Of a DNA stretch of 51,269 bases, positions 1 to 42,771 are shown piece after piece. The notes under the pieces are model-generated. The model was not told the DNA's origin and ran no database searches. It worked only from the letters and a program-made list of their open reading frames with translations. The DNA is taken from the sequence record PZ445518.1; one strand, 5' to 3'. Each line of letters starts with the position of its first letter. Position 1 is the stretch's first letter. A program made the position numbers and the translations under genes. This DNA comes from a phage.

Positions 1-1569
1 ATGATCATATGGGAAGATTTGACGGCGGCGCAAAAGCGAGCCATTAAAGAAATCAGTGAGCATTCATTCGAAAAGATGATCAGAATCTGGTTTCAGTTAT
101 TGCAGGGGCAAAAATTCCAGAGCAACTGGCATTTTAGCTTATTGTGCAGTGAGGTAGAGAAGATCATCAATGGAGAGTCGCAGAATGTGATTTTCAACAT
201 TACGCCAGGTAGCGGTAAGACTGAGATTTTCTCGATCCACATGTCACCCTACGCGTCATTGAAAAGTCGGAAGGTGAGAAACCTTAACCTTTCGTTTAGT
301 GATGGACTTGTCCAGCAAAACAGCAACAGGATAAAGGAGATTATCGGTTCTCCTGAGTGGCAAGAGCTATGGCCAGGAAAACTGGCAAAGGCGAGCGCAA
401 AAGATCTCATAGTTACGGATGGCGGCAAGGTTAAATTGCAAGTTAACTCACGTTCTATTGGCGGACAGGTAACAGGTTTGCGTGGCGGCTATATGGACGA
501 TGGTTTTACTGGTATGCTGGTTCTGGACGATCCAGACAAGCCGGATGATATGCTTTCTAAGGTCAAGCGTGAGGCGATCCACATGCGGTTAAAAAACACA
601 GTGCGATCGCGTCGAATGAAAGACACTACGCCGATTGTTATGGTGCAACAGCGACTACACGTTAATGATTCCACCTGGTTCATGCTTAATGGCGGTATGG
701 GCGGTATTGAGTTTAAAGTTGTGAGCATTCCTGCGCTGGTTACGAAAGAATACCGCGAAACGCTTCCTGATTGGTTGAAGCCTGAATTTGATCGTGATGT
801 GTTGTCAAGTAAGCCAGTGATGATAGATGGCGTTGCTCATTATTCATTTTGGCCTGCGAAGGAAAGCGCGGAGGAATTGCTTGCATTGCGCAATGCAGAT
901 CCTTATACGTTCGCCAGTCAGTACCAACAGCAACCCATCGCGCTTGGCGGCAACGTGTTTAAAACAGAGTGGTTCCAGTATTACGGCAGCGGCGAAAAAT
1001 GCGCACTTCCTAAACCGGATCGCTTTGAATACACATTTATTACTGGTGATACCGCGCAGAAGGCCGGAGAGCTTAACGACTATTCAGTTTTTTGTTATTG
1101 GGGGATGTATAAGAATCGCGTTTACTTCATTGATGGCATTCGCGGAAAGTGGGAAGCGCCGGATCTTGAATTAAATTTTATTGCCTTCGTTAATCAGTGC
1201 TGGAAGCGCAATAAGGAGTGTGGCAGCTTGCGACGTATCCACATTGAGGATAAGGCCAGCGGCACGGGTTTGATTCAGGGGGCCAAAAAGAAGATCCCGA
1301 TTGATATAAATCCCGTTCAGCGAAGCAATGACAAGGTAACGCGAGCAATGGACGCCGCGCCAGTAATGAGGGCCGGACGTGTGGCACTGCCAGAAAGTCA
1401 TCCCATGTTACCTGAGATACTGGCAGAGGTTGCAGCGTTCACTTTTGACGATTCTCATCCCCATGATGATATTGTCGATAATATAGTTGATGCTGTTAAC
1501 GTCGAAATGAACTTGGCTGATGATCCGGTAGCAAGGATGAAAAAGCTGGCTGGTCTACGCAATAAATAG
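1..1569 (+). CDS. terL: terminase large subunit
   Basis: 522-aa ORF from base 1; P-loop-like GSGKTE near N-terminus; immediately upstream of portal; ATG at 1 overlaps inferred terS stop across window ends. Confidence 0.8.
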   Translation: MIIWEDLTAAQKRAIKEISEHSFEKMIRIWFQLLQGQKFQSNWHFSLLCSEVEKIINGESQNVIFNITPGSGKTEIFSIHMSPYASLKSRKVRNLNLSFSDGLVQQNSNRIKEIIGSPEWQELWPGKLAKASAKDLIVTDGGKVKLQVNSRSIGGQVTGLRGGYMDDGFTGMLVLDDPDKPDDMLSKVKREAIHMRLKNTVRSRRMKDTTPIVMVQQRLHVNDSTWFMLNGGMGGIEFKVVSIPALVTKEYRETLPDWLKPEFDRDVLSSKPVMIDGVAHYSFWPAKESAEELLALRNADPYTFASQYQQQPIALGGNVFKTEWFQYYGSGEKCALPKPDRFEYTFITGDTAQKAGELNDYSVFCYWGMYKNRVYFIDGIRGKWEAPDLELNFIAFVNQCWKRNKECGSLRRIHIEDKASGTGLIQGAKKKIPIDINPVQRSNDKVTRAMDAAPVMRAGRVALPESHPMLPEILAEVAAFTFDDSHPHDDIVDNIVDAVNVEMNLADDPVARMKKLAGLRNK

Positions 1570-1589
1570 CACTAATTGCTAAAAAGTTA
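1567..1589 (+). repeat. conserved 22-bp element, variant copy (no promoter geometry)
   Basis: AAATAGCACTAATTGCTAAAAAG after terL stop; followed by terminator, not by spaced -10. Confidence 0.5.
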
Positions 1590-4822: not shown

Positions 4823-5332
4823 ATGGCTAAAATTGGAGCAAGTTATTTTGACACTATGGCGCGTGCGCTTCCTGGTCAGGTATCCGATACTTCGGCATAT
4901 AACATCGACGGCGCTTGTGTTCTTGACAAGGAAGATGGCATCCCAATCCTGGTTGGCGTGGCTGTTAAGCTAAAAGGCGTTGACTCAATGGGTAATAAGC
5001 TGATCGACTCCATTTCCGCTGGCGGTGACGTTCCTTATGGCGTTGGCATCCGTTCTCACTTTCAAACAACGGCTGATAATGGTCGAATGGTTTATGAGGT
5101 TGGCGGCGGAATCAACGTTATGACAGAGGGCCGCGTTTGGATGATTGGAGATGATTCAGATAAGGCCAAAAAGCCATCGTATCGTGAGCCTGTAAAAATT
5201 GATGAAAACACTGGCAAGGTAAAAAGTGGTGGCGCTATCAATACCAACTGGATTTACACGGGAGATAAAACCACATTTGGAACTGGCGAAGATGTGTTGA
5301 CTTTGTTTGAAGTTCAGGTCTTCCCAAGCTAA
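4823..5332 (+). CDS. virion structural protein (possible capsid decoration), paralog of 5383..6165
   Basis: MAK start with strong RBS; shares YNIDG and W-I-TGD blocks with next gene; followed by terminator. Confidence 0.45.
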   Translation: MAKIGASYFDTMARALPGQVSDTSAYNIDGACVLDKEDGIPILVGVAVKLKGVDSMGNKLIDSISAGGDVPYGVGIRSHFQTTADNGRMVYEVGGGINVMTEGRVWMIGDDSDKAKKPSYREPVKIDENTGKVKSGGAINTNWIYTGDKTTFGTGEDVLTLFEVQVFPS

Positions 5333-5337
5333 AATTA

Positions 5338-5368
5338 AGGCGCTCGCTTGAGCGCCTTTTTTATTATG
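5338..5368 (+). terminator. rho-independent terminator
   Basis: AAGGCGCTC gctt GAGCGCCTT followed by TTTTTTATT. Confidence 0.65.
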
Positions 5369-5382
5369 TAAGGAGAAATGAA

Positions 5383-6165
5383 ATGGCTAAAGATTATTCA
5401 TCTGTTATGGGTCTTTCTTGCCCTGGTTGTTTGGTTGACTCTACTCGCTACAATATTGATGGAACTGGCGTTTGTGGTTCTGAGTCGATTATTGCTGGTA
5501 AGGTTGTTTTCTTCAAAGAGAGAGTAGAAGGTTATAGCATATTTGTTGATCATAAAGAGCATGATGCGGTTGTTGCTGGCGTCGCGCTAAGGAGCAACAT
5601 AACAACGACAGTTAACGAGGAAGACGGGTATTCAGACTACAAGGAAGGAGACGCCATCAACATTTTGACAAGAGGTGTTGTATGGTGTGTAACTCAAACA
5701 ATTGAATCTCCTCCTGAACATGGCGATCTTGTTTATGTTAACAATGATGGCTTTGTAGCAAAGAGTGACGGGGATGAAATCGTCGATGGCTGGATTTTTA
5801 CTGGTGACTTCTACAAGTTTGATGAAACAATAAACATAGTAGGAGTAAGGATAACGCCGCTTCATCATAGAAAATACCTTCTTACTGGTGCGATAATTGA
5901 GGCTGAAAATGGCTACATAGAGGGAACAGAGACGATTAATAACGTTCAATTAAAGGTAACGGTTGTTCCTACTTGGGCTGATGACAAAACGGGTCAGTGG
6001 ACAATTACAAACGAGCAAGATCCAAAGGTTGCCAGCGTTAGCCGTACAGGTCTTGTTGTTCCTACTGGTGTAGGAGGCAGAGTTAACGTCAACTGGACTG
6101 CTAATGATGGTTCTGGAGTTGCTGACCAGTTTGATATTGTATTTAAGAAAACCGCTGGCGAATAA
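5383..6165 (+). CDS. virion structural protein with Ig-like C-terminal region (possible capsid decoration)
   Basis: N-terminal half paralogous to 4823..5332; C-terminal Thr/Val/Gly-rich beta-type segment. Confidence 0.45.
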   Translation: MAKDYSSVMGLSCPGCLVDSTRYNIDGTGVCGSESIIAGKVVFFKERVEGYSIFVDHKEHDAVVAGVALRSNITTTVNEEDGYSDYKEGDAINILTRGVVWCVTQTIESPPEHGDLVYVNNDGFVAKSDGDEIVDGWIFTGDFYKFDETINIVGVRITPLHHRKYLLTGAIIEAENGYIEGTETINNVQLKVTVVPTWADDKTGQWTITNEQDPKVASVSRTGLVVPTGVGGRVNVNWTANDGSGVADQFDIVFKKTAGE

Positions 6166-6190
6166 CTGATAGCATAAAAAAACATTGCAC

Positions 6191-6210
6191 GTTTAACAAA
6201 AAGTGCTATC
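6191..6210 (+). repeat. conserved 22-bp element, inverted copy in late region
   Basis: GTTTAACAAAAAGTGCTATC upstream of major capsid gene, opposite to gene direction. Confidence 0.5.
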
Positions 6211-6214
6211 ATCT

Positions 6215-6242
6215 AGGCCGTTACATTTAACGGCCTTTTTTA
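6215..6242 (+). terminator. terminator-like hairpin immediately upstream of major capsid RBS
   Basis: GGCCGTTA cattt TAACGGCC followed by TTTTTT, which abuts GGAGG. Confidence 0.55.
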
Positions 6243-6255
6243 TGGAGGAAGCAAA

Positions 6256-7227
6256 ATGGCTAAAAAATACGATGAATTAGATGCTACCATTGTAGCAAAT
6301 CATTTACAGGTTCAGGGCGTTAAGGGTGATGCTTCTGATATGGGTATTTGGACCGCTCAAGAGCTACACAAGATCCGTTCAACGGCATACGAGAAAGAGT
6401 ATCCGGCAGGTTCCGCACTTCGCGTATTCCCTGTAACAAACGAGCTTTCTGATACTGATAAGACTTTTGAGTATCAGACTTTTGATAAGGTTGGCTACGC
6501 GAAAATTATCGCCGACTACACCGACGATCTGCCGACCGTGGACGCGCTGATGACTTCTGAATTTGGCAAGGTGTTCCGCCTGGGTAACGCTTTTCTGATC
6601 TCCATTGATGAGATTAAAGCAGGTCAGCGAACTGGCAAGAGCCTGTCAACTCGCAAGGCTAACGCTGCGCAAAATGCGCATGATCAGTTGATTAACTTCC
6701 TGGTGTTCAAAGGTTCCAAGCCTCATAAGATCGTTTCCGTTTTCGATCACCCTAACCTTACGAAAATTGTTTCTAAAGGATGGATGAGCCAGGATGGAAA
6801 CACCAAGTTCCCTGATGTGGCAAGCGATGAACTGGAGGCTGCAATCGAGACTATCGAGGAAGTAACCAAAGGTCAGCACCGCGCGACTAACATCCTGATC
6901 CCGCCGTCCATGCGTAAAGTCTTGACGGTTCGAATGGAAAATACCACTGAAAGTTATCTTGAATACTTCCAGAAGCAAAACGGCGGCATCACTATCGACT
7001 CTATCGCAGAGCTTGAGGATATTGACGGCAAAGGTACGAAAGGTTGCTTGGTTTACGAAAAAGATCCAATGAACATGAGCATTGAGATTCCAGAAGCGTT
7101 TAACATGCTTCCGGCGCAGCCAAAAGACCTTCATTTCAAGGTTCCTTGCACTTCCAAGTGTACTGGCCTTACTATTTACCGTCCGTTTACGATGGTGCTT
7201 ATTACTGGCTTGAAAAAGTCAGCTTAA
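6256..7227 (+). CDS. major capsid protein
   Basis: 323 aa; strong RBS GGAGG; terminator hairpins on both sides; position after scaffold and decoration genes. Confidence 0.7.
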   Translation: MAKKYDELDATIVANHLQVQGVKGDASDMGIWTAQELHKIRSTAYEKEYPAGSALRVFPVTNELSDTDKTFEYQTFDKVGYAKIIADYTDDLPTVDALMTSEFGKVFRLGNAFLISIDEIKAGQRTGKSLSTRKANAAQNAHDQLINFLVFKGSKPHKIVSVFDHPNLTKIVSKGWMSQDGNTKFPDVASDELEAAIETIEEVTKGQHRATNILIPPSMRKVLTVRMENTTESYLEYFQKQNGGITIDSIAELEDIDGKGTKGCLVYEKDPMNMSIEIPEAFNMLPAQPKDLHFKVPCTSKCTGLTIYRPFTMVLITGLKKSA

Positions 7228-7238
7228 TTAGATAACAT

Positions 7239-7270
7239 GGGGAGCCTTAAGGGTTCCCCTTTTTTTATTT
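7239..7270 (+). terminator. rho-independent terminator after major capsid gene
   Basis: GGGGAGCC ttaa GGGTTCCCC followed by TTTTTTTATTT. Confidence 0.65.
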
Positions 7271-7285
7271 ACGGAGTACACAAAA

Positions 7286-7552
7286 ATGAGCAAAACTTTA
7301 AAACTTAAAGTAACTGGCGTTTGCATGATTATTATGGACGGTAAGCGTTATCACCCTGGTGATGAGATTGAAATTGAATCTGATCGCATTAATGATTCCG
7401 CAATTGAATACCTGATCGCTCGCGGCGATGTGGAAGTTAAAGACAATTCCGAAATTAACGAGCAAATCAAGGAGAAAGCGGAGAAGAAGCGCAAAAAAGA
7501 TCCTACCGAGGGCAAGAGCCGCAAAGAGCTAGAGGATGGCGGCGAATATTAA
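7286..7552 (+). CDS. hypothetical protein
   Basis: 88-aa ORF with GGAG RBS; Lys/Glu-rich C-terminus. Confidence 0.4.
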
Positions 7553-7598
7553 TAATTGGGGCGCTTATGCGCCCCTTGTCATATCTGGAGAAAGCAAA

Positions 7599-8018
7599 AT
7601 GGTAGATGAATTTTACACAGACGCTGAAATCGTTCAGCAAATCGTAAAGTTGGCCCCACCAATGCAGCAGGTTGATCCCGATTTAATTGTGGCATGGATT
7701 GAGCTTGCTAAAGAATTTGTTTGCAAAAAACGGTTTAAAAACTCATACCCGAAAGCGGTTGCGCTTTACACTCTTCACCTTATGACCTTAGACGGGGCAA
7801 TGAAACAGGAAGGTGAAAGCGTAGAAAGCTATTCCCGCCGCGTTGCATCGTTCACTCTGACTGGTGAGTTTAGTCAGACGTTTGATCGAATTTCTTCCGA
7901 TACAAGCGGAAAGCAGATCCGACAAACGCCGTGGGGCAAAATGTACGAAGTGTTAAACCGTAAGCACGGTGGCGGCTTTGGACTTGTAACTGGATTGCGC
8001 CGGAGATGTTGCCGATGA
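7599..8018 (+). CDS. head-tail connector/adaptor (putative)
   Basis: ATG at 7599 after GGAG; in-frame with ORF 7536..8018; synteny only. Confidence 0.4.
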
Positions 8019-8389
8019 ATTACAATGAGATTGCAAGAATGGCTACTGCTGGGATTAACTTTTTCAGCGACGCTAACGGTATGTTTAAGTGCATCACGCA
8101 GCAGGGAGGGGTTGAGATTATCGGCGGAGAGGAAGTTGCCAAGCCTGAGATTTCAGTGATGATAAAGGGGCTTGTTAGATCTCCGAGGACTAGAGAGGTT
8201 GACGGTGAAACGATCCGAGTAACCGACAAGTTGGGGGTATTCACCAATGAAACTGAGATCAAAAATGGTTATCAGATTGAAATTGATGGCGATCGTTATG
8301 TTGTCGTTGAAGCAAGACCAGTCAGACAGACTAACATCACGGCAGCTTATCGTCCGATATTAAGGAGGATTGCAGTGCATGGCGGATAA
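8015..8389 (+). CDS. head-tail joining protein (putative)
   Basis: ATG overlaps upstream stop (ATGA); synteny only. Confidence 0.4.
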
Positions 8390-8822
8390 TTATAAGATCA
8401 GGGAATTTCACGGTGATATAAGCAGGTGGATTGATTCAGTAAGCAGCGGCCTTGTTGATTGCGTTGAAATGTTCGCGACAAACGTCCACGAGGATCTTGT
8501 AAAGCGTTCGCCAGTTGATACGGGCCGATATAAAGCTAACTGGCAGGTAACAGCAAACAAGCCGCCGCTATATGCTCTCAATCAATACGATCGCGATGGT
8601 AGTAAAACCATTGCAGAAGGCAAGCGAGCAATATATGCAATCATGCGGGGCGGTGGAGCGGTGCGGTCAATCTATTTTTCAAACATGCTTATTTACGCCA
8701 ATGCGCTTGAATACGGGCATTCAAAACAAGCGCCGTCCGGCGTGCTGGGAATCGTGGCGGTAAAGCTGCGATCCTATATGACTAAGGCAATAAAGGATTC
8801 GAGGGCAAAAAATGCACTATGA
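8370..8822 (+). CDS. neck / tail component (putative)
   Basis: 150-aa ORF overlapping neighbours; synteny only. Confidence 0.4.
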   Translation: MQCMADNYKIREFHGDISRWIDSVSSGLVDCVEMFATNVHEDLVKRSPVDTGRYKANWQVTANKPPLYALNQYDRDGSKTIAEGKRAIYAIMRGGGAVRSIYFSNMLIYANALEYGHSKQAPSGVLGIVAVKLRSYMTKAIKDSRAKNAL

Positions 8823-9213
8823 TTTAATGTTAGCGGCAAGAAAGGCGCTGGCGGAGGAATATGAATCACGATTCAAGATCGCCTATGAAAACGTTGATTT
8901 TGTTCCGCCTGGTGATGGTTCGATGTGGTTAAAATTTGACTACATGGAAGCCGACACAGATCGCATATCTCTTGATAGAAAATGCGTTTCTTATATCGGA
9001 TTGGTTCAGGTTGGAATTGTTATGCCTCCTGGCGGCGGCACTGATAAAGCGCGTTTGCTGGCTAAAGAGATTGCGAGATTTTTCTATGATGGTAGAATGT
9101 TTGAAACTGGCTATATTAGCGAGGGGGCAAACGTCCACGCATTACTAAAAAGTGAAACAGGTTGGTTCTTACCGATCCGTTTCAGTGTTAGGCTTGACAC
9201 AAAGGAGGAATAA
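8812..9213 (+). CDS. tail completion protein (putative)
   Basis: 133-aa ORF directly upstream of major tail gene. Confidence 0.4.
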   Translation: MHYDLMLAARKALAEEYESRFKIAYENVDFVPPGDGSMWLKFDYMEADTDRISLDRKCVSYIGLVQVGIVMPPGGGTDKARLLAKEIARFFYDGRMFETGYISEGANVHALLKSETGWFLPIRFSVRLDTKEE

Positions 9214-9215
9214 TC

Positions 9216-9878
9216 ATGCACTTGCCTAATGGTTCTCAAATTTTCATCGGCGTTAATATGGGTGATCCGATTCAGGCTACGGCTATTTCAAATGCTAATG
9301 ATCCTGTTTTTACGACTGCAAACACTCAAAGCATCAAAAAAGGCGCTTATGTTCTTATTGAAACATCTTCTTGGGGCAAACTTGTTAGTCGAGTGCTTCG
9401 AGTTAAGGAAGTATCAGGTAATGTAAGTGTTACTCTTGAGGGCGTTAGCACCAAAGATACAAACGTATTTCCAGAAGGAAAGAACACAGCAACTTTCCGA
9501 GAAGTGAAATCTTGGGTAGAGGTTCCTTGCGTGCAGGATCTTGCGCAGGACGGCGGCGAGCAACAGTATTACACTTATCAGTGTTTGGCTGATGACCAGG
9601 AGCAGCAGTTACCGACCTACAAGAGCGCGGTTTCTCTTACCTACACTTTCGCTCATGAATATGATAACCCGATTTATCCGATCTTGCGCGAGGCTGAGGA
9701 ATCCGGCGACGTAACCGCTTTGCGTATGTACGTGCCGAAAGCTAAAGAGATGCGTTGCTGGGCTGGCGTATTGTCTTTTAATGACATTCCGCAAACAACT
9801 ATGAACGAAATGGAAACTGTTTCCCTTTCTGTATCTCTGAAAGGCCGATTCACGTTCTTACCTTCCGACGTTAAGTAA
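9216..9878 (+). CDS. major tail protein (putative)
   Basis: 220 aa; RBS AAGGAGG; followed by strong terminator; upstream of chaperone and tape measure. Confidence 0.55.
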   Translation: MHLPNGSQIFIGVNMGDPIQATAISNANDPVFTTANTQSIKKGAYVLIETSSWGKLVSRVLRVKEVSGNVSVTLEGVSTKDTNVFPEGKNTATFREVKSWVEVPCVQDLAQDGGEQQYYTYQCLADDQEQQLPTYKSAVSLTYTFAHEYDNPIYPILREAEESGDVTALRMYVPKAKEMRCWAGVLSFNDIPQTTMNEMETVSLSVSLKGRFTFLPSDVK

Positions 9879-9881
9879 AAC

Positions 9882-9906
9882 AAGGGGCGTTGCGCCCCTT
9901 TTTTCA
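9882..9906 (+). terminator. rho-independent terminator after major tail gene
   Basis: AAGGGGCG ttg CGCCCCTT followed by TTTTTCATT. Confidence 0.7.
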
Positions 9907-9943
9907 TTCCTGTAAAATCAATCTATCAAATAAATTAATTCCA

Positions 9944-9965
9944 CTTTTAACAAAAAGTGCTATAA
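9944..9965 (+). repeat. conserved 22-bp element, inverted copy in late region
   Basis: CTTTTAACAAAAAGTGCTATAA just upstream of chaperone RBS; on minus strand it is followed after 19 nt by TAGATT. Confidence 0.5.
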
Positions 9966-9977
9966 GGAGATCTTAAG

Positions 9978-10295
9978 ATGGCAAAGATGAAACTAACGTT
10001 AGGCCCACTGCCTGATTTTAAGCTGCCTGTTTCTTTCGTGCTTCCAAATGGTGATGAGCAAGTTATTATTTTTACCGTGCGCCACAAGAAGGCAAGCGAA
10101 ATTCACGAACGATACACGGCAGAAAAGCCGATGAGCGACGTAGAAATGATCACCTTCCTTGCTTCCGGTTGGGATCTGGAAGATGAATTTAACGAGGAAA
10201 ACGTTGCTAAATTGCTGGATTATTACCCGTCTGCGTCATTATCGCTGACTGGTCATTATATGAAAGCGCTTGCGGGGCAGCGGGTAAAAAACTAA
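9978..10295 (+). CDS. tail assembly chaperone (lambda G-like)
   Basis: 105 aa, acidic; between major tail and tape measure genes; ends at slippery A_AAA_AAC. Confidence 0.65.
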   Translation: MAKMKLTLGPLPDFKLPVSFVLPNGDEQVIIFTVRHKKASEIHERYTAEKPMSDVEMITFLASGWDLEDEFNEENVAKLLDYYPSASLSLTGHYMKALAGQRVKN

Positions 10296-10612
10296 AGCGG
10301 GCGGTTTACCTGTTTTACCTCAAGCCGCCAACTGACGCACAATTAGAGGCCGTCGGCCTATCCCGTTCAGACTACGAAGGGGAGGAGCCGCCGGAGGTAA
10401 TTTTTGATGAATCAATGTTTCAATCTTGGGATCTGTTTTGCGCTATGCAGACGCAATGGAGATCGACTAGCGGCAGTGTGTATGGGTTCGACTATAACGT
10501 TTTGCCTATGCTTTTTGACATTTACAAGATTGAGGATCGGGAGATGGCGCTAAATGATTTGCGCATCATGGAACAAAAGGCGCTAGAAATGATTCATTCA
10601 AACAAAACATAA
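9978..10612 (+). CDS. tail assembly chaperone -1 frameshift fusion product (GT-like)
   Basis: Slippery heptamer A_AAA_AAC at 10286-10292; the -1 frame is open from there to the stop at 10612 and joins ORF 10415..10612. Confidence 0.5.
10286..10292 (+). promoter_or_regulatory. programmed -1 ribosomal frameshift slippery heptamer
   Basis: A_AAA_AAC in zero frame, ending one codon before the chaperone stop; -1 frame open to 10612. Confidence 0.5.
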
Positions 10613-10632
10613 GCGCCGCGAGGCGCTTTTTT
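10611..10632 (+). terminator. rho-independent terminator after chaperone frameshift ORF
   Basis: AGCGCC gcga GGCGCT followed by TTTTTTAA. Confidence 0.6.
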
Positions 10633-10651
10633 AATATCTGGAGGTTTTAAA

Positions 10652-13333
10652 ATGGCTGAAAAATACGCTGGCCTAACGCTAGGCGTTGACGTGTCGCAGG
10701 TCAACAATGCTGTTAAATCATTGCAGCAATTCAAGAAGGCAAACGACGACGCAAAAAAAAGCGTTAATGAATTTGTTGATTCTGAGGTTGTGGCCCGACA
10801 GCAAGCAAAACAGCTTGCCGAAGAACTGGCGCGCCAGAAAGCAGAATTTAAGAAAATCCAGGAGTCAATTGATCCCACTGCATCAAAGATTGATAAGCTG
10901 CGAAAGGCAGCGACACAGCTTGATGCGCTATGGAAAAAGGGCGTTGTTCCTGATCAGACTTTTTTTGAGCTTGGGGCAATTCTTGAGACGCAGCAAAACA
11001 AGCTGATCGCAACCAAAAAAGCGATGACAGAGGAAGGCCGCGCGGCGCTTGAGGAATCAAAGAACAAGGCGCGTGCAGCGGAAGAGGCTAAAAAATTCGT
11101 CCAGGCTTTGCGTGAGCAGGAAGAAGCAGCAGGAAAAAGCAAGTCTGAATTGCTGGAAATGAAAGCGGCACAGCTTGGAGTTAGCCAGGAGGCAGCACCT
11201 TACATCGCAAGGCTGAAAGAGCAGGAAAAGCAGATCCAGAAACTTGGGATTTCTACAGGCCAATACAAACAAGCAATGGCGCAATTGCCAATGCAGATCA
11301 CAGACGTGGTGACTTCACTTGCTTCTGGTATGCCAGTTTGGTTGGTCGCAGTCCAGCAGGGTGGACAGATCAAGGATTCTTTTGGTGGTGCATCCAATGC
11401 TTTAAAAGCGTTGCTATCTTTCCTGAATCCGGTAAACGTGGCGTTTGGCTTGCTTTCCGGCACGCTGGCAATTGCTGCATATAATGCCTACAAAGCACAG
11501 ACAGAGCTTGAGGCAATTAAAAAAACCGTTCAGGAAACAACTGGCTTGAGTGGTGAGTTTGCCGAAAAGATTGCTATAGGAATCAAGGAGCTTTCCGACA
11601 AGACAGGCGAAAGCGCCGAAGATCTGGCAAATGCTTACATCACCACGAAAGACGGCGCGAGCGAGGCGATTAAAAAACTGGTTGACGTTGGCATGACTTA
11701 TGATGACGCAAAAAAGAAAGTCAACGAGTACAAGGGCGCGTCTAGCTTTGTCAGCTTGAATAACGAAATTGCAAACCACAAAAACAAAGTCCTTGAGTTG
11801 GGCGATTCGTGGTATGAGGTTTTGAAAGCGAAGCGTGATTACGCTTCCCCGTCCGGCGGCCTGTTAGGTAAGGAGCTTGGCTATGTTAACCCTATGCTTA
11901 AGTTTGCACTTAACACTTATGAAGACATTGGAAAGGTCGTAAAAGATGCGAATAAGGACATGGCGGAACGAGCGGAGCGAATCGACAAAGAAAACCTGGC
12001 CTTAAACAGAGTGCGCGCAGCACAGGAGGCTTTAAACAAAGCCATTGAGGATCAGAAAAATGTGGCGCGTTCGGCTGATGAAGAACTGAAAAAGCGCGCG
12101 GCTGAAAACGTGGAGTTTAGGCGCAAAGAGCTTGAGGAAATCAAGAAGCAGGAGCAGAAAAAGAAAGAGGCTAAAGGGGGAATAGTTCGCGGCCCTACTG
12201 AGCAGCTTGATAAAGAGTTGTACGTTTTAAAGGCGCAACTGGAAACTCTTAAAGAGCATCGCACTGTTAACGATGTTATTTCTCGCCAGCGTAAATCTTT
12301 ATGGAGCATCGAAAAGCAGATCGAGATCCTGGAGAATGCGCAGAGCAAGCGTAAATTGACCGGAGCGGAACAGGCGCTACTAAACGAGCAAAAGGCCGTT
12401 CTTGAAATGGCAAGACAAAAAGCTGAGCTAGGGGATCAGATTGTTTTGCAGGAGCGCAAAAACAAGCTGGAGCAAGATAGTCTTAAGTTTATCCGTGAAA
12501 CTGAGGCTGCTATTGATGCGATTGGCCTTAAGCAACTTGGCTACACTGAAAAGCAGATCGAGCGTGAGCTAGAGTTACGCAAGCTGCGCACCGACTACGA
12601 GGCGCAAGGCGGAAGCGTTAGCGACGAAGTTTTTCAGCAAATGGAGACGAAACTTAAGCTGTATTACCAGGCACAAGACGAGGCGCAAGGCAACTGGTTA
12701 GCCGGAGCAAAGAACGCATGGGAGCTATTCGCGGAAGATGCAAACAATGCCTATGGCAATGTTCAGCAGATCGCAAGCGAGGCGTTAAACGGCCTTACAA
12801 ACCAATTAGCGAATTTTATCGCTACTGGCAAGGCAAACTTTAAAGACTTCTCGACGGCTATCATCAAAATGATTATTCAGATGATCACGAAAATGGTCGT
12901 CTTTAATGCGTTATCTGGCCTGATGGGTGGTCAAACCTGGACGATGGGGAGCTTGCTTAAGAATATTGGCGGATTTGCTGGCGGTGGATACACTGGCGAC
13001 GGCGGGAAGTATGAGCCAGCCGGAATTGTCCATAAAGGTGAATTTGTCATGACGAAGGAGGCGACGCAGCGTATTGGGGTAGGAAACTTGTACCGCATGA
13101 TGCGAGGCTATGCTAACGGCGGCGTTGTTGGTAGTTCCGGCTATACTGGCGGTGGCGCTGTAACTGGTGGAGCACCTCAATTTAACATCGGCGGGATTGA
13201 TGTTAGCATCACTAACGGAAACGATCCGAAGGGCATCGAAACTGGTGTTAAGATGATCTTTACTGATATGATTAAACGTTCCTGTATGCAGGGCGGCGAG
13301 GTTTACGAATTTGTTATGAGCAAGCGAGGTTGA
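10652..13333 (+). CDS. tail tape measure protein
   Basis: 893 aa, long coiled-coil-type Ala/Lys/Glu/Gln-rich stretches, Gly-rich C-terminal part; canonical position. Confidence 0.85.
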   Translation: MAEKYAGLTLGVDVSQVNNAVKSLQQFKKANDDAKKSVNEFVDSEVVARQQAKQLAEELARQKAEFKKIQESIDPTASKIDKLRKAATQLDALWKKGVVPDQTFFELGAILETQQNKLIATKKAMTEEGRAALEESKNKARAAEEAKKFVQALREQEEAAGKSKSELLEMKAAQLGVSQEAAPYIARLKEQEKQIQKLGISTGQYKQAMAQLPMQITDVVTSLASGMPVWLVAVQQGGQIKDSFGGASNALKALLSFLNPVNVAFGLLSGTLAIAAYNAYKAQTELEAIKKTVQETTGLSGEFAEKIAIGIKELSDKTGESAEDLANAYITTKDGASEAIKKLVDVGMTYDDAKKKVNEYKGASSFVSLNNEIANHKNKVLELGDSWYEVLKAKRDYASPSGGLLGKELGYVNPMLKFALNTYEDIGKVVKDANKDMAERAERIDKENLALNRVRAAQEALNKAIEDQKNVARSADEELKKRAAENVEFRRKELEEIKKQEQKKKEAKGGIVRGPTEQLDKELYVLKAQLETLKEHRTVNDVISRQRKSLWSIEKQIEILENAQSKRKLTGAEQALLNEQKAVLEMARQKAELGDQIVLQERKNKLEQDSLKFIRETEAAIDAIGLKQLGYTEKQIERELELRKLRTDYEAQGGSVSDEVFQQMETKLKLYYQAQDEAQGNWLAGAKNAWELFAEDANNAYGNVQQIASEALNGLTNQLANFIATGKANFKDFSTAIIKMIIQMITKMVVFNALSGLMGGQTWTMGSLLKNIGGFAGGGYTGDGGKYEPAGIVHKGEFVMTKEATQRIGVGNLYRMMRGYANGGVVGSSGYTGGGAVTGGAPQFNIGGIDVSITNGNDPKGIETGVKMIFTDMIKRSCMQGGEVYEFVMSKRG

Positions 13334-24429: not shown

Positions 24430-24708
24430 TTAAGCCCATTCTCTAATAGGCTGATCTAACTCAACCACGTATCCATTAAAAATTACGGCATCAAACTTAT
24501 CATCAATGATTCGCACATTGACGAAATAGCCGTCGTTCTTTCGCGCAATCTCATCGCCATCGTCAGATCGTGCAATTACTGTGTAAGTATTGCCGATCAC
24601 ATCGAGCAGGATTGTATCCTGAATGGATTCGTTTTCGTTCCATTCAATTTCTTCCAGAAAGGCGGAAAACTCCGCCTTGTCTACAAATTTCAGTGTTAAA
24701 TCACGCAT
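24430..24708 (-). CDS. hypothetical protein
   Basis: ATG at 24708 overlaps tail fiber stop (TAATG). Confidence 0.45.
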   Translation of the reverse strand: MRDLTLKFVDKAEFSAFLEEIEWNENESIQDTILLDVIGNTYTVIARSDDGDEIARKNDGYFVNVRIIDDKFDAVIFNGYVVELDQPIREWA

Positions 24709-26663
24709 TATACAATTTCCCCCAATTGATGATCTGTTAGTGCCTTGTGCCATATACGGAAGTTTCTAACGTGCCCGAAAAGATGACGTTCGCCCGTAGT
24801 TGTTTGTCCGCCAATCCTTATAGTAGCCGTTGATACTATATATCTCCATTCCGTTTTTGTTTCGCTTGATATTCTGGCATTACTTACACAACAAGTATTG
24901 TAATCACTCTTTACTCTCATTCCTATGATCATCTTTTTTAGTTTCGCATTCTCGTTAACCCTTCTGTTTGATTTACCTATATCGCAATAAGGGAATCCAT
25001 CACTATCGCCCTTGGCAGATCCGAAAGCAAGAATAATTTCCGCACCAGATTGATGACCTCCAGAACCAAAAACACGAGGCGCAGCACTTGGCGTCATACT
25101 CCAGTTTTTATGAGCTTCCACAAGCACTGTAAACGGCAAATTGTAAAGGTTGTTTTTTATTGGCAATGTAACCATATCGCTTGCCCTTGTTGTCGGACTT
25201 TCATTAGTTATAATGAATGATGAAGCGCAAGATCCAACCTCTACTTGAGGAGTTGTTAAATCCATAAAGCTATTTTCATCAAAAACTTCTCCTTGTTTAT
25301 TAACGACCTGTATTACCCCCCTAATGGAAGTTGATTCATCAGTAACTTTGTAAACTATTTCTGCAAAAATCCATTCCCCGTCTATGGTAGCGTTCTTTAG
25401 CACTATGTTTTTTGCGTCAACTCCAGAAGTTGCCACCCCTAAGTTATCGCAATCAATAATAGCAGAAGCAACAGAAGATAAAGGATCTCCCTTGTCAAAT
25501 CTTGCTGCAAATCTTACATTTTTCCCCTTAGCCCTAAAAGATATTGTAACTCCATCACCCTTTACAACTGCAATATTATTTGTAGTAAGTCCAGCTATAA
25601 TAGTGTAAGAGCCTACGCCACCTAAATATTTCCCTGGTTTAAATGTTGCATACTTAAACCCCCTTTCATCAGTCTTAGTTTCACCTCTTTCTAATCCTGT
25701 ATTTGGATTCCATGATTCAGGCTTATTTGAATTTACAAAATAGTTTGTTCTCTGCCCTTCAATCAAAAGACCATCCTTTTCAAATCTAGGTTCATCAATA
25801 GCAGCATCAGTAAGCAACCCAGACTTATTAATGTAAGTAGCGGTTGATGCACGTTTAAACTTAACAATCTTGTCACCTGGCATCGTGATCTCATCATCAC
25901 CTATGACAATCTTTTTGTATGACGGCGAGAATCCGGTGATCATATCCAGGGAATCATTAAATGGTATCCACACGTCAGGTAGAGGCTGCAATAAATCTTT
26001 GTAAGGTTCTGCGGCCTGTTTTGCGTATTCCTCCGCTTGATCTCGCGCACTTTCAGCGCCTGCCTTTGCGGTGTTCGCAGCATCACGCGCAGTTTCAGCG
26101 CCTTTTCTTGCAGTTTCAGCGCCAGTCTTTGCAGTGTTTGCAGCGTCGCGCGCGGATTCAGCGGCAGCCTTTGCAGTGTCAGCACCTTTCTTGCTATTCT
26201 CTGCATTTGTTGCGCTTGTCTTTGCGTTATTCTCGCTAGTTTTAGCTGCCTTCTGGCTTGCTGCGGCTGCGTCAGCATTTGTCTTTACGTCTTCCTGGAT
26301 CTTCTGTAGCTTATCCCAATCAAAATCCTTGATGATCTCAATAAATCCAGCAAGCTCCGACTCCTTTCCCTGGTAATAACGCAACGTTTCCGCTACGTCT
26401 TGCGCAAGACCGTCAACCGTTAACGAGTCATGAAGCAAGATCAGGTAATTTGTCTTCTGTACTACCGCGCCGCCAGTAGTAATTGCGCGAATGCTTGTAT
26501 CGCTAATCACTTCTGTAATCACAGCAGCTTGCAAAGGTTGAGCAAGAAAGAAAATAGTTGCGCCTGGGCGAATCAAGGTTAATTGCTCACGCCATTTTGT
26601 ACCGTAACCAGTTACATAACCTTGCGCGTCCATAGACGCTTGGCCTTGTCTGTAAATCGCCAT
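24708..26663 (-). CDS. tail fiber protein
   Basis: ATG at 26663 after AGGAGG; Ala-rich repeats (SARDAANTAK); C-terminal lectin/LamG-like region. Confidence 0.7.
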   Translation of the reverse strand: MAIYRQGQASMDAQGYVTGYGTKWREQLTLIRPGATIFFLAQPLQAAVITEVISDTSIRAITTGGAVVQKTNYLILLHDSLTVDGLAQDVAETLRYYQGKESELAGFIEIIKDFDWDKLQKIQEDVKTNADAAAASQKAAKTSENNAKTSATNAENSKKGADTAKAAAESARDAANTAKTGAETARKGAETARDAANTAKAGAESARDQAEEYAKQAAEPYKDLLQPLPDVWIPFNDSLDMITGFSPSYKKIVIGDDEITMPGDKIVKFKRASTATYINKSGLLTDAAIDEPRFEKDGLLIEGQRTNYFVNSNKPESWNPNTGLERGETKTDERGFKYATFKPGKYLGGVGSYTIIAGLTTNNIAVVKGDGVTISFRAKGKNVRFAARFDKGDPLSSVASAIIDCDNLGVATSGVDAKNIVLKNATIDGEWIFAEIVYKVTDESTSIRGVIQVVNKQGEVFDENSFMDLTTPQVEVGSCASSFIITNESPTTRASDMVTLPIKNNLYNLPFTVLVEAHKNWSMTPSAAPRVFGSGGHQSGAEIILAFGSAKGDSDGFPYCDIGKSNRRVNENAKLKKMIIGMRVKSDYNTCCVSNARISSETKTEWRYIVSTATIRIGGQTTTGERHLFGHVRNFRIWHKALTDHQLGEIV

Positions 26664-26678
26664 TTGTAAAATCCTCCT

Positions 26679-26700
26679 AAATAGCACTTTTTGCTAATGA
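26679..26700 (+). repeat. conserved 22-bp element, copy opposite to flanking genes
   Basis: AAATAGCACTTTTTGCTAATGA between primase terminator and tail fiber start. Confidence 0.5.
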
Positions 26701-26728
26701 CAATGCAGATAATAGCATTTTCAAGTGC

Positions 26729-26754
26729 AAAAAAAAACCCCGCATAAGCGGGGC
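26729..26754 (-). terminator. rho-independent terminator after primase
   Basis: Minus strand: GCCCCGC ttat GCGGGG followed by TTTTTTTTT. Confidence 0.7.
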
Positions 26755-26769
26755 AATACTAGCGGAGTT

Positions 26770-27699
26770 TTATAGCAGTGATTCGGGCTTGTAGAGTTTT
26801 CTTTCTACTCCCTGTTTAAAATTATCGTTAACAGGCATCATTATGTCAAGTCCTCTTTCCTCTGCCGCGATTATCACATCACGATCATCTTTCCGGCAGA
26901 CTACGCGCATTCTTCTTTCTCCTTTATATCTATGCGCAACCATTTCAAGATTTGAAGGAGTAAAACAGGCCCACACCTCTTGACCAGTTGATAAATGAAC
27001 ATGCTGAGAATCAACCCAATCAAGGCACAAATAGATCGTCTTATCTGTACTACCTGTTTTAACAACAGATCCGCGCGTGTAGTCGCGAGCTAAAAACCAA
27101 TCCTTTCCATCCTCATCAATGAAAAGCACGTTACACATTTCATCATCCAGCCCGTCATCATGCACCAGGTGACAAGGTAGCGCGTGAATGTATCGACCAT
27201 CCTTGACGCCGCAATCATAATGACAATCTTCCGGCGGATATATCCCCTCATAAACGCTTAAAGGTGTGCGATCGAATTTTAATGTTTTTGCCATCACTTT
27301 TTCGCAACATTCATGACTTGCCTGTTTCCCGAACGAGTAACCAGAAGAACGCGAAGCGCGTTTGTTTGCTCTGATCCTGTAATCTTGTGGCACTTTTCCG
27401 AGGAAGCGGCCCAAAATGTTGATGGCCTCGCTGTAAGGTTCGCCAGTTAATTTCATTAACCAACCGATCCCCGTGTCGTTGCCGCACACGTTGCAGATCG
27501 CGCCGCCGTCGCCCTCTTCATTTAGCTTATCAGTCCATCTAAAACGATCCTTACCGCCGCAGTGTGGGCAAGGTTGATGCTTTTTGTTGAAAACATCGCT
27601 ATGCAGTCCGCAAATGCTTTGTAGTGCTTCACGCCATAACCCCTTCATATATGGCAAAACATCTTCTTTCTGATAGGTCATAAAGTTTTCAGTATTCAT
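26770..27699 (-). CDS. DNA primase (zinc-ribbon type)
   Basis: CPHCGG...CNVCG zinc ribbon near N-terminus; ATG at 27699 just downstream of terminator hairpin. Confidence 0.65.
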   Translation of the reverse strand: MNTENFMTYQKEDVLPYMKGLWREALQSICGLHSDVFNKKHQPCPHCGGKDRFRWTDKLNEEGDGGAICNVCGNDTGIGWLMKLTGEPYSEAINILGRFLGKVPQDYRIRANKRASRSSGYSFGKQASHECCEKVMAKTLKFDRTPLSVYEGIYPPEDCHYDCGVKDGRYIHALPCHLVHDDGLDDEMCNVLFIDEDGKDWFLARDYTRGSVVKTGSTDKTIYLCLDWVDSQHVHLSTGQEVWACFTPSNLEMVAHRYKGERRMRVVCRKDDRDVIIAAEERGLDIMMPVNDNFKQGVERKLYKPESLL

Positions 27700-27754: not shown

Positions 27755-28231
27755 TTAGCTATTCGTGCTGTTATCACCTTTGTAGAATCGTCCGCCTGGT
27801 TCGTAGTCTGAATTTTTGACTACGCGCAACATATCGTATTTGTCGCAACGGGTAGTAAGAGGCTTACCGTTAGAATCAAACCGCAGATCTGGACGACAAA
27901 ATGATGCGCGGTATCCTTTGCATCCATTATATTTGTAGTCGTTATGCACCTTTTGTGCTCCAGCGGCTGAAATCATACCACGCTTTCGCCACTGGTTAAC
28001 GACTTGCTGAGATACGCGCAGACGTCGAGCCATAGCAGGAACGCCGCCGTAATACTCGATCAGAATGTCAAGGCGAGATTTCAGGCTTGCTTTTACCTCA
28101 TCTCGCAGGATAAGAAATCCGGTTCGGTGTTTTCGTGGTTTTTTGTCTTTACCTCGTCGCGTTCCGTTGTTACCGTTAATAGTGCGCTTGTCGATCTCAC
28201 CCGTAGATACTGCAATTCGTGCATCTTTCAT
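27755..28231 (-). CDS. HTH DNA-binding protein (putative transcriptional regulator)
   Basis: Helix-turn-helix-like segment GGVPAMARRLRVSQQVVNQWRKRG; first gene of leftward operon from divergent region. Confidence 0.5.
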   Translation of the reverse strand: MKDARIAVSTGEIDKRTINGNNGTRRGKDKKPRKHRTGFLILRDEVKASLKSRLDILIEYYGGVPAMARRLRVSQQVVNQWRKRGMISAAGAQKVHNDYKYNGCKGYRASFCRPDLRFDSNGKPLTTRCDKYDMLRVVKNSDYEPGGRFYKGDNSTNS

Positions 28232-28241
28232 CTAGTCACCT

Positions 28242-28286
28242 CATAGCATTTTTTGTTAAAACAGTTTATTGTAATGAGTCTATTAT
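28242..28286 (+). promoter_or_regulatory. conserved-element promoter cassette (-10 TATTAT) upstream of helicase
   Basis: CATAGCATTTTTTGTTAAAAC, 19 nt, TATTAT. Confidence 0.5.
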
Positions 28287-39650: not shown

Positions 39651-39863
39651 TCATTTCTTATTTTTCATCTTAAATTTATGGCCCGGAACACCAGCGCCAA
39701 TATAGCCATCGCTGTATTCCATTAAATAAAGGTGAAGACCATTATCTGAAATTACATGAGGATCTTCTTTGAGATTTCCCATTAGTGGATATTCTTTTTC
39801 GCGCGTGAATTTCCAAATTGAGTTATAAGTTTCTACGCATTTAAGTTTTAATTGCTTTGCCAT
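39651..39863 (-). CDS. hypothetical protein
   Basis: 70-aa ORF, coupled to upstream gene. Confidence 0.45.
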   Translation of the reverse strand: MAKQLKLKCVETYNSIWKFTREKEYPLMGNLKEDPHVISDNGLHLYLMEYSDGYIGAGVPGHKFKMKNKK

Positions 39864-40060
39864 TAGATGATCTCCATGTATGTTTCAAAGCCATTTAACT
39901 TGAACAGGCCGTTTTCACATTTGCGAACGTTCCAAGTTAGCCCTGAGTGGTACGCCTCCATATCATCAAGGTCAATGGTGATTTCAGCACCTTTCTTAAA
40001 CAAACATTTTTCGTGAGACTTGTCGCGCTTAACAACTTTAACATCAACCTGATTTTCCAT
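39863..40060 (-). CDS. hypothetical protein
   Basis: 65-aa ORF with GAGGA RBS downstream of promoter cassette. Confidence 0.45.
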   Translation of the reverse strand: MENQVDVKVVKRDKSHEKCLFKKGAEITIDLDDMEAYHSGLTWNVRKCENGLFKLNGFETYMEII

Positions 40061-41396: not shown

Positions 41397-41444
41397 AATG
41401 TACCCGATCAGGCGGCCTGAGTTTTAACAAAAAGTGCTATTTGA
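41397..41444 (-). promoter_or_regulatory. conserved-element promoter cassette (-10 TACATT) for leftward early operon
   Basis: Minus strand: AAATAGCACTTTTTGTTAAAAC, 19 nt, TACATT, leader CATCGAAACGAAC. Confidence 0.5.
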
Positions 41445-41979
41445 CGGTTAGCACCAGGATTGTGATCGAAATAATCAAAAGTAATCATTCGTAATCAAAT
41501 CACGTCAAAATGATGATTGCATTTGCAAATTTGATGAGAAAAGTAATCACGTTTAATCATTGGTTGCAGGGGAGATAGTGAAACCTTCCCCTCTTGCCTC
41601 ACTTTCCCGCCTGGCTGTCAGTGGTTGTTATGTTCCGTTCCCGCCTGTTCTTTTGTTGACCTTCCGCAAAATACGATAACAAAAAATAACAAACAATACC
41701 TATATAATACATTGAAAAATAAGGATTATTTATTTATATGTATCTATATATTATCTTTTGTTATCTTGGTTATTGTGGTATTTGGTGGGGGTATATAGTT
41801 TTTGTGTATCTATATGTGTGTATGGGTATGTAGGGGCATATATATCTATATGGCACTTTCCGCGAGAAAACTTCGATAACAGCCAATGATAACATTGATT
41901 TATAAGGAAAAATAACGCCAATATTGTTATTGTGCCACCATATAAAATTGATAAAACACGCGGGAACAAGAAAAAACAG
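41445..41979. promoter_or_regulatory. AT-rich divergent control region B (candidate operator/origin region)
   Basis: About 535 bp without ORFs; GTAATCA x3, palindrome ATTTGCAAAT, TTCCCGCCTG x2, TATGT/GTATCTATAT word repeats, GGGAACAAGAAAAA box. Confidence 0.5.
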
Positions 41980-42008
41980 TTGACACATTAAATAGCATTA
42001 TTGATAAT
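41980..42008 (+). promoter_or_regulatory. sigma70-type promoter for rightward early operon
   Basis: TTGACA, 17-nt spacer, GATAAT; about 30 nt upstream of ATG 42038. Confidence 0.6.
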
Positions 42009-42037
42009 GCCGACACCTAACAACCAGGAGGTAGAAA

Positions 42038-42502
42038 ATGAGCGAGCAATCATTAACTGACACGCTGCGCCGTGCAGCTATTATGCTGGCTAATGGCGAG
42101 GAAGAGGCGATCAAGATTCCTGACGCGTATTTGCAGGTCCACATGTTCGGCAAGAAGTCGGCAAGCAATCCGGCGGCCTACATTCGCCAGATCATGAGTC
42201 GAGTTCCAGAAGTCGCCGAGCGGGGGCGCGTATCCGTTACCCGTGGAGTTTACGGGCCGGAAGATGAAAACTTCGGTAGCACTTTCTACGAGGTGCGCAT
42301 TGTTGAAGGACGTCGCAAGGTTTACAACAAAGAGGCACTGGAAAGGGCAGTACGCCAGGCTAAGCGCAAGGTTGCAGAGGCGATCATTGATATGTCACCA
42401 AACCTAGCAAACTATGCGCCGGAAGAGTATGAAACATTATCAAAGGCCGTCGCTGACTTTCACGCGATGATCAAAAAAACTTTCCTGGAGGATGAGCAAT
42501 GA
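42038..42502 (+). CDS. hypothetical protein (first rightward early gene)
   Basis: AGGAGG RBS; downstream of TTGACA-N17-GATAAT promoter. Confidence 0.5.
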   Translation: MSEQSLTDTLRRAAIMLANGEEEAIKIPDAYLQVHMFGKKSASNPAAYIRQIMSRVPEVAERGRVSVTRGVYGPEDENFGSTFYEVRIVEGRRKVYNKEALERAVRQAKRKVAEAIIDMSPNLANYAPEEYETLSKAVADFHAMIKKTFLEDEQ

Positions 42503-42771
42503 AAAAGGCGTTAATCGGTGTTTTGGTGGCAATGGCATTCCTGACCGGATGTAAAGAAGATGGCGCGCATGTTGGCAATGTGCAGATGGCTAACCCTGGC
42601 GATGACTACAACGTAAGGGAGCTATTCACCGCTGACGGATGCACTGTTTACCGATTCTATGACGATCGCACTGTTTACTTCACCAACTGCAAGGGAACTA
42701 CTAGCTGGGAAGTGTCGAAAAGCAATGGCAAAGGCACGAAGACAGAACATATGACCGTCGAGACAAAATAG
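42499..42771 (+). CDS. lipoprotein (second putative exclusion-type lipoprotein)
   Basis: Signal peptide with lipobox LTGC (MKKALIGVLVAMAFLTGC); stop TAG inside conserved element. Confidence 0.6.
   Translation: MKKALIGVLVAMAFLTGCKEDGAHVGNVQMANPGDDYNVRELFTADGCTVYRFYDDRTVYFTNCKGTTSWEVSKSNGKGTKTEHMTVETK

Follow-up and report, generated by a model that had tools for sequence, protein, structure and literature searches.

The genome of the Shigella phage JK16 carries a repeat of 20 nucleotides (nt), the 20-mer, which in most places points along the genes behind it but at a few sites lies against them. The question raised by this locus is what the reversed copies do. JK16 is a T1-like phage (Drexlerviridae, Tempevirinae, Warwickvirus), and the window, i.e., the whole stretch of 51,269 nt analyzed here, is its genome opened at the terminase large-subunit (TerL) gene; positions 5000-12000 match JK16 at 100% identity. 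T1 itself is a classic coliphage and a notorious laboratory contaminant, and it is not known to encode its own polymerase, sigma factor or late activator. Our results suggest that the three reversed copies pointed out in a preliminary description of this DNA differ in kind. The copy before the tape-measure chaperone gene (9944-9963) appears to belong to an antisense promoter module, while those before the major capsid gene (6190-6209) and the tail-fibre gene (26681-26700) look like operators within late promoters. We propose, with a probability of roughly 0.5, that the 20-mer is the operator of a Cro-like regulator that activates from position -42 and represses or competes at late promoters.

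The repeat and its ordinary layout

The repeat has been described before. The 2024 re-annotation of phage TLS lists 18 intergenic 21-nt repeats with the consensus aaATAGCACnnnTTGnTAAAA, lying along transcription about 76 nt before start codons, and notes such repeats also in T1, Rtp and Rogue1 (PMC11447400). Its authors suggest that the repeats are stoperators, enhancer sites or UP elements and list their function as an open question (PMC11447400). JK16 resembles TLS in the consensus, in the number of copies (18 each), in the presence of T, G and A subtypes and in the distance of ~76 nt to the starts. What is given here and not in the TLS paper is a fixed spacing to a -10 hexamer, a dyad and a link to a regulator gene, which that paper does not mention (PMC11447400).

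The core AACAAAAAGTGCTAT has 19 matches with at most three mismatches in the window, against 3.15 expected, and 0/100 shuffles reach 19. A looser pattern taken from the literature consensus, ATAGCACnnnTTGyTAAAAC, gives 18 copies, all of which are intergenic or overlap stop codons. The position matrix built from 57 copies has conserved blocks at positions 1-7 and 11-18 around a variable centre, and it contains an imperfect dyad, TAGCA-N5-TG(C/T)TA. The copies are almost certainly functional.

A hexamer of the form [T/C]AnnnT follows the repeat at N17-19 in 15/18 copies, and 14 of those lead on to a Shine-Dalgarno sequence and ATG. In this ordinary layout, shared by 14 copies, the 20-mer is followed after 17-19 nt (usually 18, often with a hairpin) by a -10 hexamer such as CATAAT, TATAGT, TATAAT, TAAAAT and similar. 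Five nt further downstream comes a conserved CATCGAAACGA-like start region, with Shine-Dalgarno and ATG ~25-30 nt on. None of these 14 modules has a -35 hexamer, and an extended -10 is mostly absent too. The same layout and consensus are found for the ordinary copies of T1 and of a Klebsiella Webervirus. Upstream of the 20-mer sits the stop codon of the preceding gene, often as the TAG inside ATAGCAC, and through this TAG the putative operator overlaps the end of a coding sequence in several cassettes (e.g., at 30732, 38199 and 42768). After the ordinary module at 42768, ~190 nt pass without a start codon before the next annotated gene at 43014. This leader (within 42768-43013) gave no structure signal (folding z = +1.06) and no Rfam or tRNA match.

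With the -10 hexamer placed at -12 to -7, the 20-mer would occupy -50 to -31, and its dyad would be centred at ~-42. From established promoter geometry, we infer that this is the position of a Class II activator. An activator-dependent layout of this type, with a -10 at a fixed distance and no -35, is found at the ordinary copies and on the antisense strand at 9944-9963, and is not found at 6190-6209 and 26681-26700. By inspection, the consensus sites of IHF, Fis, CRP, FNR, DnaA and ArcA give no convincing match to the repeat.

Reversed copies before late genes

The late structural genes occupy 1 to ~19500 on the plus strand (annotation), and the rest of the genome beyond the helicase gene consists of early cassettes in both directions. 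As the preliminary description had stated, the copies at 6190-6209 and 9944-9963 are canonical on the minus strand among plus-strand genes, and the copy at 26681-26700 is canonical on the plus strand between the minus-strand primase and tail-fibre genes. Elsewhere, the minus orientation does head minus-strand cassettes (35045, 37207, 38199, 40116 and 41421). A fourth copy, 28243-28262, also opposes one of its adjoining genes, which brings the number of such copies to 4/18. The copies at 6190-6209 and 9944-9963 match the published consensus with 0-1 mismatch, and 26681-26700 fits it except in the A-tract (TAATGA). The rule that a repeat lies along transcription ~76 nt before a start codon describes 14 copies but fails at these three.

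For conservation, we compared the T1 and Webervirus genomes and two sets of IMG/VR loci, 79 surrounding homologues of the capsid gene (protein identity from 98% down to 54%) and 32 surrounding homologues of gp02. Most of the 79 loci have the capsid-gene copy in this orientation, 60-80 nt before the start; it occurs in nearly all loci of at least 77% identity, in part of the ~55% group and in T1. At the chaperone gene, the 18-mer core is invariant or near-invariant amid diverged flanks in 18 distinct sequences (one with a substituted centre) and T1. At the tail-fibre gene, 11 distinct sequences and T1 retain the copy, and at gp02 all loci examined do. The comparison of orientation that had been called for thus finds the reversed copies conserved in place and direction, and the idea that they are relics can be set aside because this conservation reaches relatives as distant as T1.

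The obligatory -10 was scored as TAnnnT at N17-19 after the repeat, in its canonical direction and among distinct relatives only. The background rate of TAnnnT in such a three-position window is 0.034.

Chaperone site: 19/19 (N18 or N19; 11 different hexamers)
gp02/helicase site: 28/28
Primase site: 19/19
Capsid site: 2/52
Tail-fibre site: 0/12
TerL-portal site: 0/21

The earlier suggestion of antisense promoters is thereby supported for 9944-9963, by anatomy and conservation, but not for 6190-6209 or 26681-26700. The TerL-portal copy appears to form a third class of repeat copy, in which the ordinary orientation is kept, no -10 follows at N17-19 and the next feature downstream is a terminator.

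1566-1585, plus strand: A-type copy ATAGCACTAATTGCTAAAAA between the TerL and portal genes, directly after the terminase stop codon

The chaperone site has the following features, where TSS stands for transcription start site.

9878, plus strand: end of the major tail gene
9882-9906, both strands: terminator hairpin after the major tail gene, with a U-tract on either side in JK16
9890-9918, plus strand: predicted sense promoter of the chaperone operon, -35 TTGCGC at 9890-9895, 17 nt, -10 TAAAAT at 9913-9918; predicted TSS ~9925
9920-9925, minus strand: antisense -10 TAGATT, 18 nt from the 20-mer; predicted antisense TSS ~9913
9944-9963, minus strand: reversed 20-mer ATAGCACTTTTTGTTAAAAG, upstream element of the putative antisense promoter module
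9978, plus strand: start of the tape-measure chaperone gene

Judged by its sequence, 9944-9963 is the only one of the three reversed copies with a complete antisense promoter module, and it is likely to fire antisense. The TAGATT that had been noticed downstream on the minus strand is indeed present at 9925-9920, although its spacing from the 20-mer is 18 nt and not 19. This hexamer is absent where relatives have no repeat, e.g., in TLS. The sense promoter is conserved as TTGCNN-16/17-TAnnAT in 33/39 loci (17 with the reversed repeat, 16 without), and T1 has TTGCAC-17-TAAAAT. The two predicted promoters overlap back-to-back, with adjacent -10 hexamers and predicted starts at 9925 (plus) and 9913 (minus), ~12 base pairs (bp) apart. 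Since the same DNA would have to be melted, two polymerases cannot both be bound. The 20-mer also lies at ~+19 to +38 of the predicted sense transcript, directly before the Shine-Dalgarno sequence at 9964-9969.

A very short antisense transcript had been expected here. This stands for JK16-like sequences, where an RNA of ~35-40 nt is predicted (start ~9913, then the hairpin at 9900-9882, then UUGUUUU), but it is not conserved otherwise. Likewise, the hairpin at 9882-9900 scores on both strands, as a bidirectional terminator should, but the antisense U-tract is poor in most relatives and in T1. As a defined short RNA is not conserved, we find it likelier that the site is kept for polymerase occupancy or competition where the two promoters overlap than for an RNA product. 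No Rfam family reaches its threshold anywhere in the window. The full-length antisense match to STnc50 (RF02059) at 9871-9955 scores 33.8 bits against a gathering threshold of 55; the STnc50 locus is the Salmonella core lpdA/STM0155 spacer and not phage DNA, and we regard the match as a chance combination of an A-rich stretch and a terminator. A separate observation concerns the terminator after the major tail gene, whose loop reads TTGC 17 nt (16 in one locus) before the -10 in 33 related loci, i.e., one hairpin seems to double as a terminator and as the -35 of the next promoter.

At the capsid gene, the arrangement is different.

6165, plus strand: end of the gene on the upstream flank of the copy
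6176-6212, plus strand: predicted sigma-70 capsid promoter, with an A-tract at 6176-6182, -35 TTGCAC at 6185-6190 and a 16-nt spacer
6204-6205 and 6207-6212, plus strand: TG and TATCAT, the -10 part of this promoter; predicted TSS ~6219
6190-6209, minus strand: reversed 20-mer ATAGCACTTTTTGTTAAACG, forming the spacer and the first half of the sense capsid -10; putative operator centre ~-18
6215-6241, plus strand: terminator-like hairpin and T-run, after the capsid promoter and before the ribosome-binding site of the capsid gene; the 5' arm overlaps the predicted TSS
6256, plus strand: start of the major capsid gene

The copy spans about -29 to -10 or -28 to -9 and supplies the spacer, the TG and the TAT of the sense promoter. 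Among 52 distinct relatives, the -35 is TTGnnn (TTGCAC, TTGACC, TTGAAC, TTGACG) in 51, the -10 is TATCAT, TATTCT or TATATT, and an A-tract lies upstream in the commonest contexts. The JK16 A-tract, at about -43 to -37, fits the proximal subsite of a UP element. T1 has TTGACG-16-TATTAT at this place. In Webervirus, the repeat has decayed (ATATCACGAATCGTTAAGCC) and the promoter TTGACG-17-TATTCT is kept. The TLS paper, in its Table S1, places repeat DR7 on the negative strand beside the plus-strand terminator T35 in the late region, uncommented (PMC11447400). DR7 matches 6190-6209, as the TLS-genome locus in our set (L023) has a reversed copy 77 nt before the capsid gene.

The hairpin at the capsid site is also found in TLS (T35, adjoining DR7) and in T1; Webervirus has a terminator upstream of the promoter instead. 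A -10 followed within 2-4 nt by a terminator hairpin and T-run, with the start inside the 5' arm, is seen at the capsid gene (6207-6241) and apparently at the portal gene (1589-1625). Such hairpins would stop transcripts from upstream, while locally started transcripts could not fold them fully and might read on; each late unit would thus be insulated.

The tail-fibre site lies on the opposite strand.

24708-26663, minus strand: tail-fibre gene
26681-26700, plus strand: reversed 20-mer ATAGCACTTTTTGCTAATGA, at ~+2 to +21 of the transcript predicted for the tail-fibre gene, immediately upstream of the Shine-Dalgarno sequence at 26677-26673
26709-26717, minus strand: extended -10 promoter predicted in the sense direction for the tail-fibre gene, TGCTATTAT; predicted TSS ~26701
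26737-26754, minus strand: terminator between the primase gene and the tail-fibre promoter
26770-27699, minus strand: primase gene

T1 and all 11 distinct sequences compared, the window among them, have the motif TGnTAnnAT at the same place, 10 nt before the repeat. Another sequence, TTGACA-17-GATAAT at 26849-26821 on the minus strand, agrees with the sigma-70 consensus at 11/12 positions; it falls in the 3' end of the primase gene and upstream of the terminator at 26754-26737.

Both the capsid and the tail-fibre copy thus lie between -35 and ~+20 of an independent, predicted promoter, which is the range of a repressor site. Regulator binding, one of the uses suggested earlier, is the best reading for both, although not "independently of transcription", as both overlap conserved sense promoters. 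From this architecture, we lean towards the view that 6190-6209 and 26681-26700 act as operators on the sense promoters.

A candidate regulator and the explanations it has to compete with

The fourth reversed copy lies in a divergent promoter pair between the helicase gene and gp02.

27755-28231, minus strand: gp02, 158 amino acids, Cro-like helix-turn-helix protein, annotated as a transcriptional regulator
28243-28262, plus strand: repeat copy, canonical for the helicase gene, with TATTAT at 28281-28286 after N18
28309-28282, minus strand: predicted gp02 sense promoter TTAAAA-16-TATAAT, called by the scanner described below
28319 onwards, plus strand: helicase gene

For gp02 this copy is reversed and lies at ~+13 to +32 of the predicted transcript, abutting the gp02 ribosome-binding site. 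The -10 hexamers of gp02 and the helicase gene coincide on opposite strands, with predicted starts ~18 bp apart (28275 on the minus strand and 28293 on the plus strand). The promoter of the gp02 equivalent in TLS, P57 (TTGACT-17-TATCAT), is one of three consensus sigma-70 promoters found in that genome (PMC11447400). That the gp02 promoter is among the few of this kind fits a protein that is made first.

The Cro-like nature of gp02 is supported by several comparisons. It matches Pfam YdaS / P22_Cro just below the cut-off, PHROG 2856 (transcriptional regulator) with E = 3e-72, and the solved Cro proteins PDB 5w8y and 3bd1. Its AlphaFold2 model has a mean pLDDT of 85, and Foldseek ranks Xfaso 1 Cro and N15 Cro highest, at target-normalised TM scores of 0.66-0.74 and with weak E-values (0.01-0.5). 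The gene is divergent from the helicase gene in T1, TLS and Webervirus alike, and its homologues are found only on ~50 kb contigs. Forty small early open reading frames gave no Pfam DNA-binding domain, although unknown folds would escape such a search; among the early genes, gp02 is the sole DNA-binding protein that can be recognised. We therefore regard gp02 as the best candidate for the binder of the 20-mer, at slightly less than an even chance. Two features of the gp02 family may be added, namely an invariant, probably disordered, basic N-terminal arm (D14, R16, N19-G23, R26, D29, R33) and a conserved C-terminal cysteine region (GCxGYRASFCRPD...RC); some homologues have long lysine-rich tails.

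In the proposed mechanism, gp02 production would begin immediately, from the gene's own sigma-70 promoter, and the protein would bind the 20-mers, which are most likely sites for a phage protein, each consisting of a pseudo-palindromic operator and a flanking A-tract. At the ordinary copies, gp02 bound at ~-42 would recruit the host sigma-70 polymerase to early and middle cassettes that have no -35. The reversed copies would place this operator on sigma-70 promoters that work unaided, namely those of late genes and of gp02 itself, where binding would hinder transcription. The capsid promoter would be obstructed between -35 and -10 (centre ~-18) and the tail-fibre promoter at ~+2 to +21 (centre ~+12), while the operator at ~+13 to +32 of the gp02 promoter would give autoregulation. 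At the chaperone site, a polymerase brought in to read antisense would keep the sense promoter from being used, in JK16 making only a very short RNA. Promoter activity, start sites, binding protein and the sign of regulation are all read from the architecture and conservation of the sites, and the sign as proposed here is doubtful.

A wider version of this model is rather improbable, namely that one Cro-like protein and one 20-bp operator run the whole T1-like timing and that late genes are released by operator titration. In that version, ~14 early and middle promoters would be turned on, and the capsid, chaperone and tail-fibre promoters and that of the protein itself held back, either by occupying them or by turning polymerase around where promoter regions are shared. 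Replication would then multiply the 18 operators per genome and titrate the protein, so that the late genes come on; this is one possibility.

Several points weigh against the proposed model. The dyad is imperfect, position 14 is T in half of the copies, and the two conserved flanks, ATAGCAC and TAAAAC, do not mirror each other. The repeat consensus is identical in JK16, T1 and Webervirus, which leaves no covariation between gp02 and its site to compare. Furthermore, the chaperone-site copy is absent from TLS and about half of the close relatives, and Webervirus has neither the chaperone nor the tail-fibre copy; these sites are therefore dispensable. Terminators and sigma-70 promoters were called with a simple scanner and set against shuffles. 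It called sigma-70-like sites no more often than in shuffles, and apart from the terminators the only site it confirmed was the gp02 promoter. It missed the capsid promoter, where the -35 matches 3 of 6, and the chaperone promoter, so that the case for these two is one of conservation, in which key positions stay fixed and others vary. Repression of strong late promoters would also have to be relieved in some way. The reader of the element might, instead of gp02, be a host factor or RNA polymerase itself. Finally, the searched literature holds no start-site, RNA or protein-DNA binding data for T1-like phages, and the paper on KanT1, a related T1-like phage, does not mention promoters or repeats.

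Among the alternatives, a pure repressor site at every copy, acting as a stoperator-like roadblock or an early shut-off operator on otherwise constitutive ordinary promoters, would agree with the operator positions at the late promoters, which are typical for repression. The ordinary promoters, however, have no -35 and mostly no extended -10 and look activator-dependent. A roadblock would need no strict spacing to -42, and four copies break the orientation rule. We consider this alternative unlikely.

We also give little chance to a reading by host polymerase alone, in which the element would be UP-like or a displaced -35-like sequence needing no phage protein and the reversed copies would provide an extended -10 or an A/T-rich leader. 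It has some appeal, as TTGyTA is -35-like and one copy reads TTGACA, the reversed half-site gives the capsid promoter its TG and TAT (GTGCTAT = TGnTAT), and UP elements were among the suggestions of the TLS authors. However, the 22 bp between TTGyTA and the -10 are too many for sigma-70, and TTGyTA is ruled out as a true -35. At -50 to -31, the element does not coincide with the range of UP elements (-59 to -38), no -35 follows it, and its most conserved part is the GC-containing ATAGCAC block; it does not qualify as a UP element. Moreover, the tail-fibre, gp02 and chaperone copies lie downstream of the sense -10 and can supply no promoter element.

That all reversed copies are antisense promoters, whose RNAs pair with late messages and delay or tune expression like the CII-dependent paQ of lambda, is quite unlikely. 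The chaperone site speaks for it, with the full module in all 19 relatives and an antisense -10 only where the repeat is present, but the capsid and tail-fibre copies have no -10 at the obligatory spacing, and the sole antisense RNA predicted in JK16 is largely terminator hairpin and belongs to no Rfam family at threshold. Very unlikely, finally, is an action of the element as RNA, with 3' ends of early cassettes pairing over 20 nt with reversed copies to block translation or trigger cleavage: reversed copies do end 0-13 nt before a Shine-Dalgarno sequence at three sites (tail-fibre, chaperone and gp02) in nearly all relatives and ordinary copies overlap the preceding stop codon, but the capsid copy lies within the promoter and so outside the capsid message, the fixed spacing of ordinary copies to the -10 is a constraint at the DNA level, and the reversed element has no strong structure, only an A-U stem of 4-7 bp read by eye.

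Known systems and significance

The proposed action of gp02 has parallels in well-known systems. Class II promoters (CRP/FNR at -41.5; lambda CI at OR2 for PRM at ~-42) share with the ordinary copies the centre, the replaced -35, the good -10 and the strict spacing. Lambda CI also represses the divergent promoter from the same operator region and regulates itself, as proposed for gp02. Compared with Class II promoters, the JK16 site is less symmetric, its start sites are predicted, and activation is putative. The phi29 protein p4 at A2b/A3 is a single protein that activates a promoter without a -35, excludes polymerase from an overlapping opposite promoter and thereby forms a temporal switch, as proposed here. 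However, p4 binds at ~-82, it activates late and represses early genes, the reverse of what is suggested for JK16, and the proteins are unrelated.

The antisense module at 9944-9963 resembles lambda paQ, which is activator-dependent, has no -35, runs antisense in the late-gene pathway and damps late expression. In contrast, paQ is located within the Q gene and works through an RNA that pairs, whereas the JK16 module is intergenic, stands back-to-back with a sense promoter and would yield an RNA the size of a hairpin. The stoperators of mycobacteriophage L5 are short asymmetric repressor sites that, like the repeat, occur in many copies in short intergenic gaps, mostly in one orientation. They block elongation and are not spaced to a -10; in JK16, 15/18 copies have a -10 at 17-19 nt and 4/18 are reversed, and the repeat does not qualify as a stoperator of the L5 type. 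Symmetric bidirectional bacterial promoters share a -10 region, as do gp02 and the helicase gene; the -10s at the chaperone site are adjacent. Unlike in those promoters, one direction in JK16 has a -35 and the other has the 20-mer instead.

Some observations concern the genome at large. Judging from coordinate offsets, the window is ~585 bp shorter than the JK16 record. The offsets put the difference between JK16 13291 and 16315, at ~41440-42040 of the window; a large non-coding gap separates the leftward from the rightward early cassettes there or close by. The small early protein gp24 of JK16 (39863-40060, minus strand) matches Pfam PF25180, "phage antiviral trigger protein Gp54", with E = 1e-37. 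No tRNA genes were found in the window.

The repeat was already published and the type of mechanism is classical; the reading given here addresses the question left open in the TLS paper. The reversed copies coincide with predicted promoters that serve the most abundant late proteins and the one regulator gene that can be recognised. From this reading come a candidate protein with a name, six start sites that are predicted and, for each site, an expected sign of regulation. If it is true, T1-like phages would have a compact temporal switch run by one protein, and the 20-mer modules would be portable, co-regulated promoter parts.

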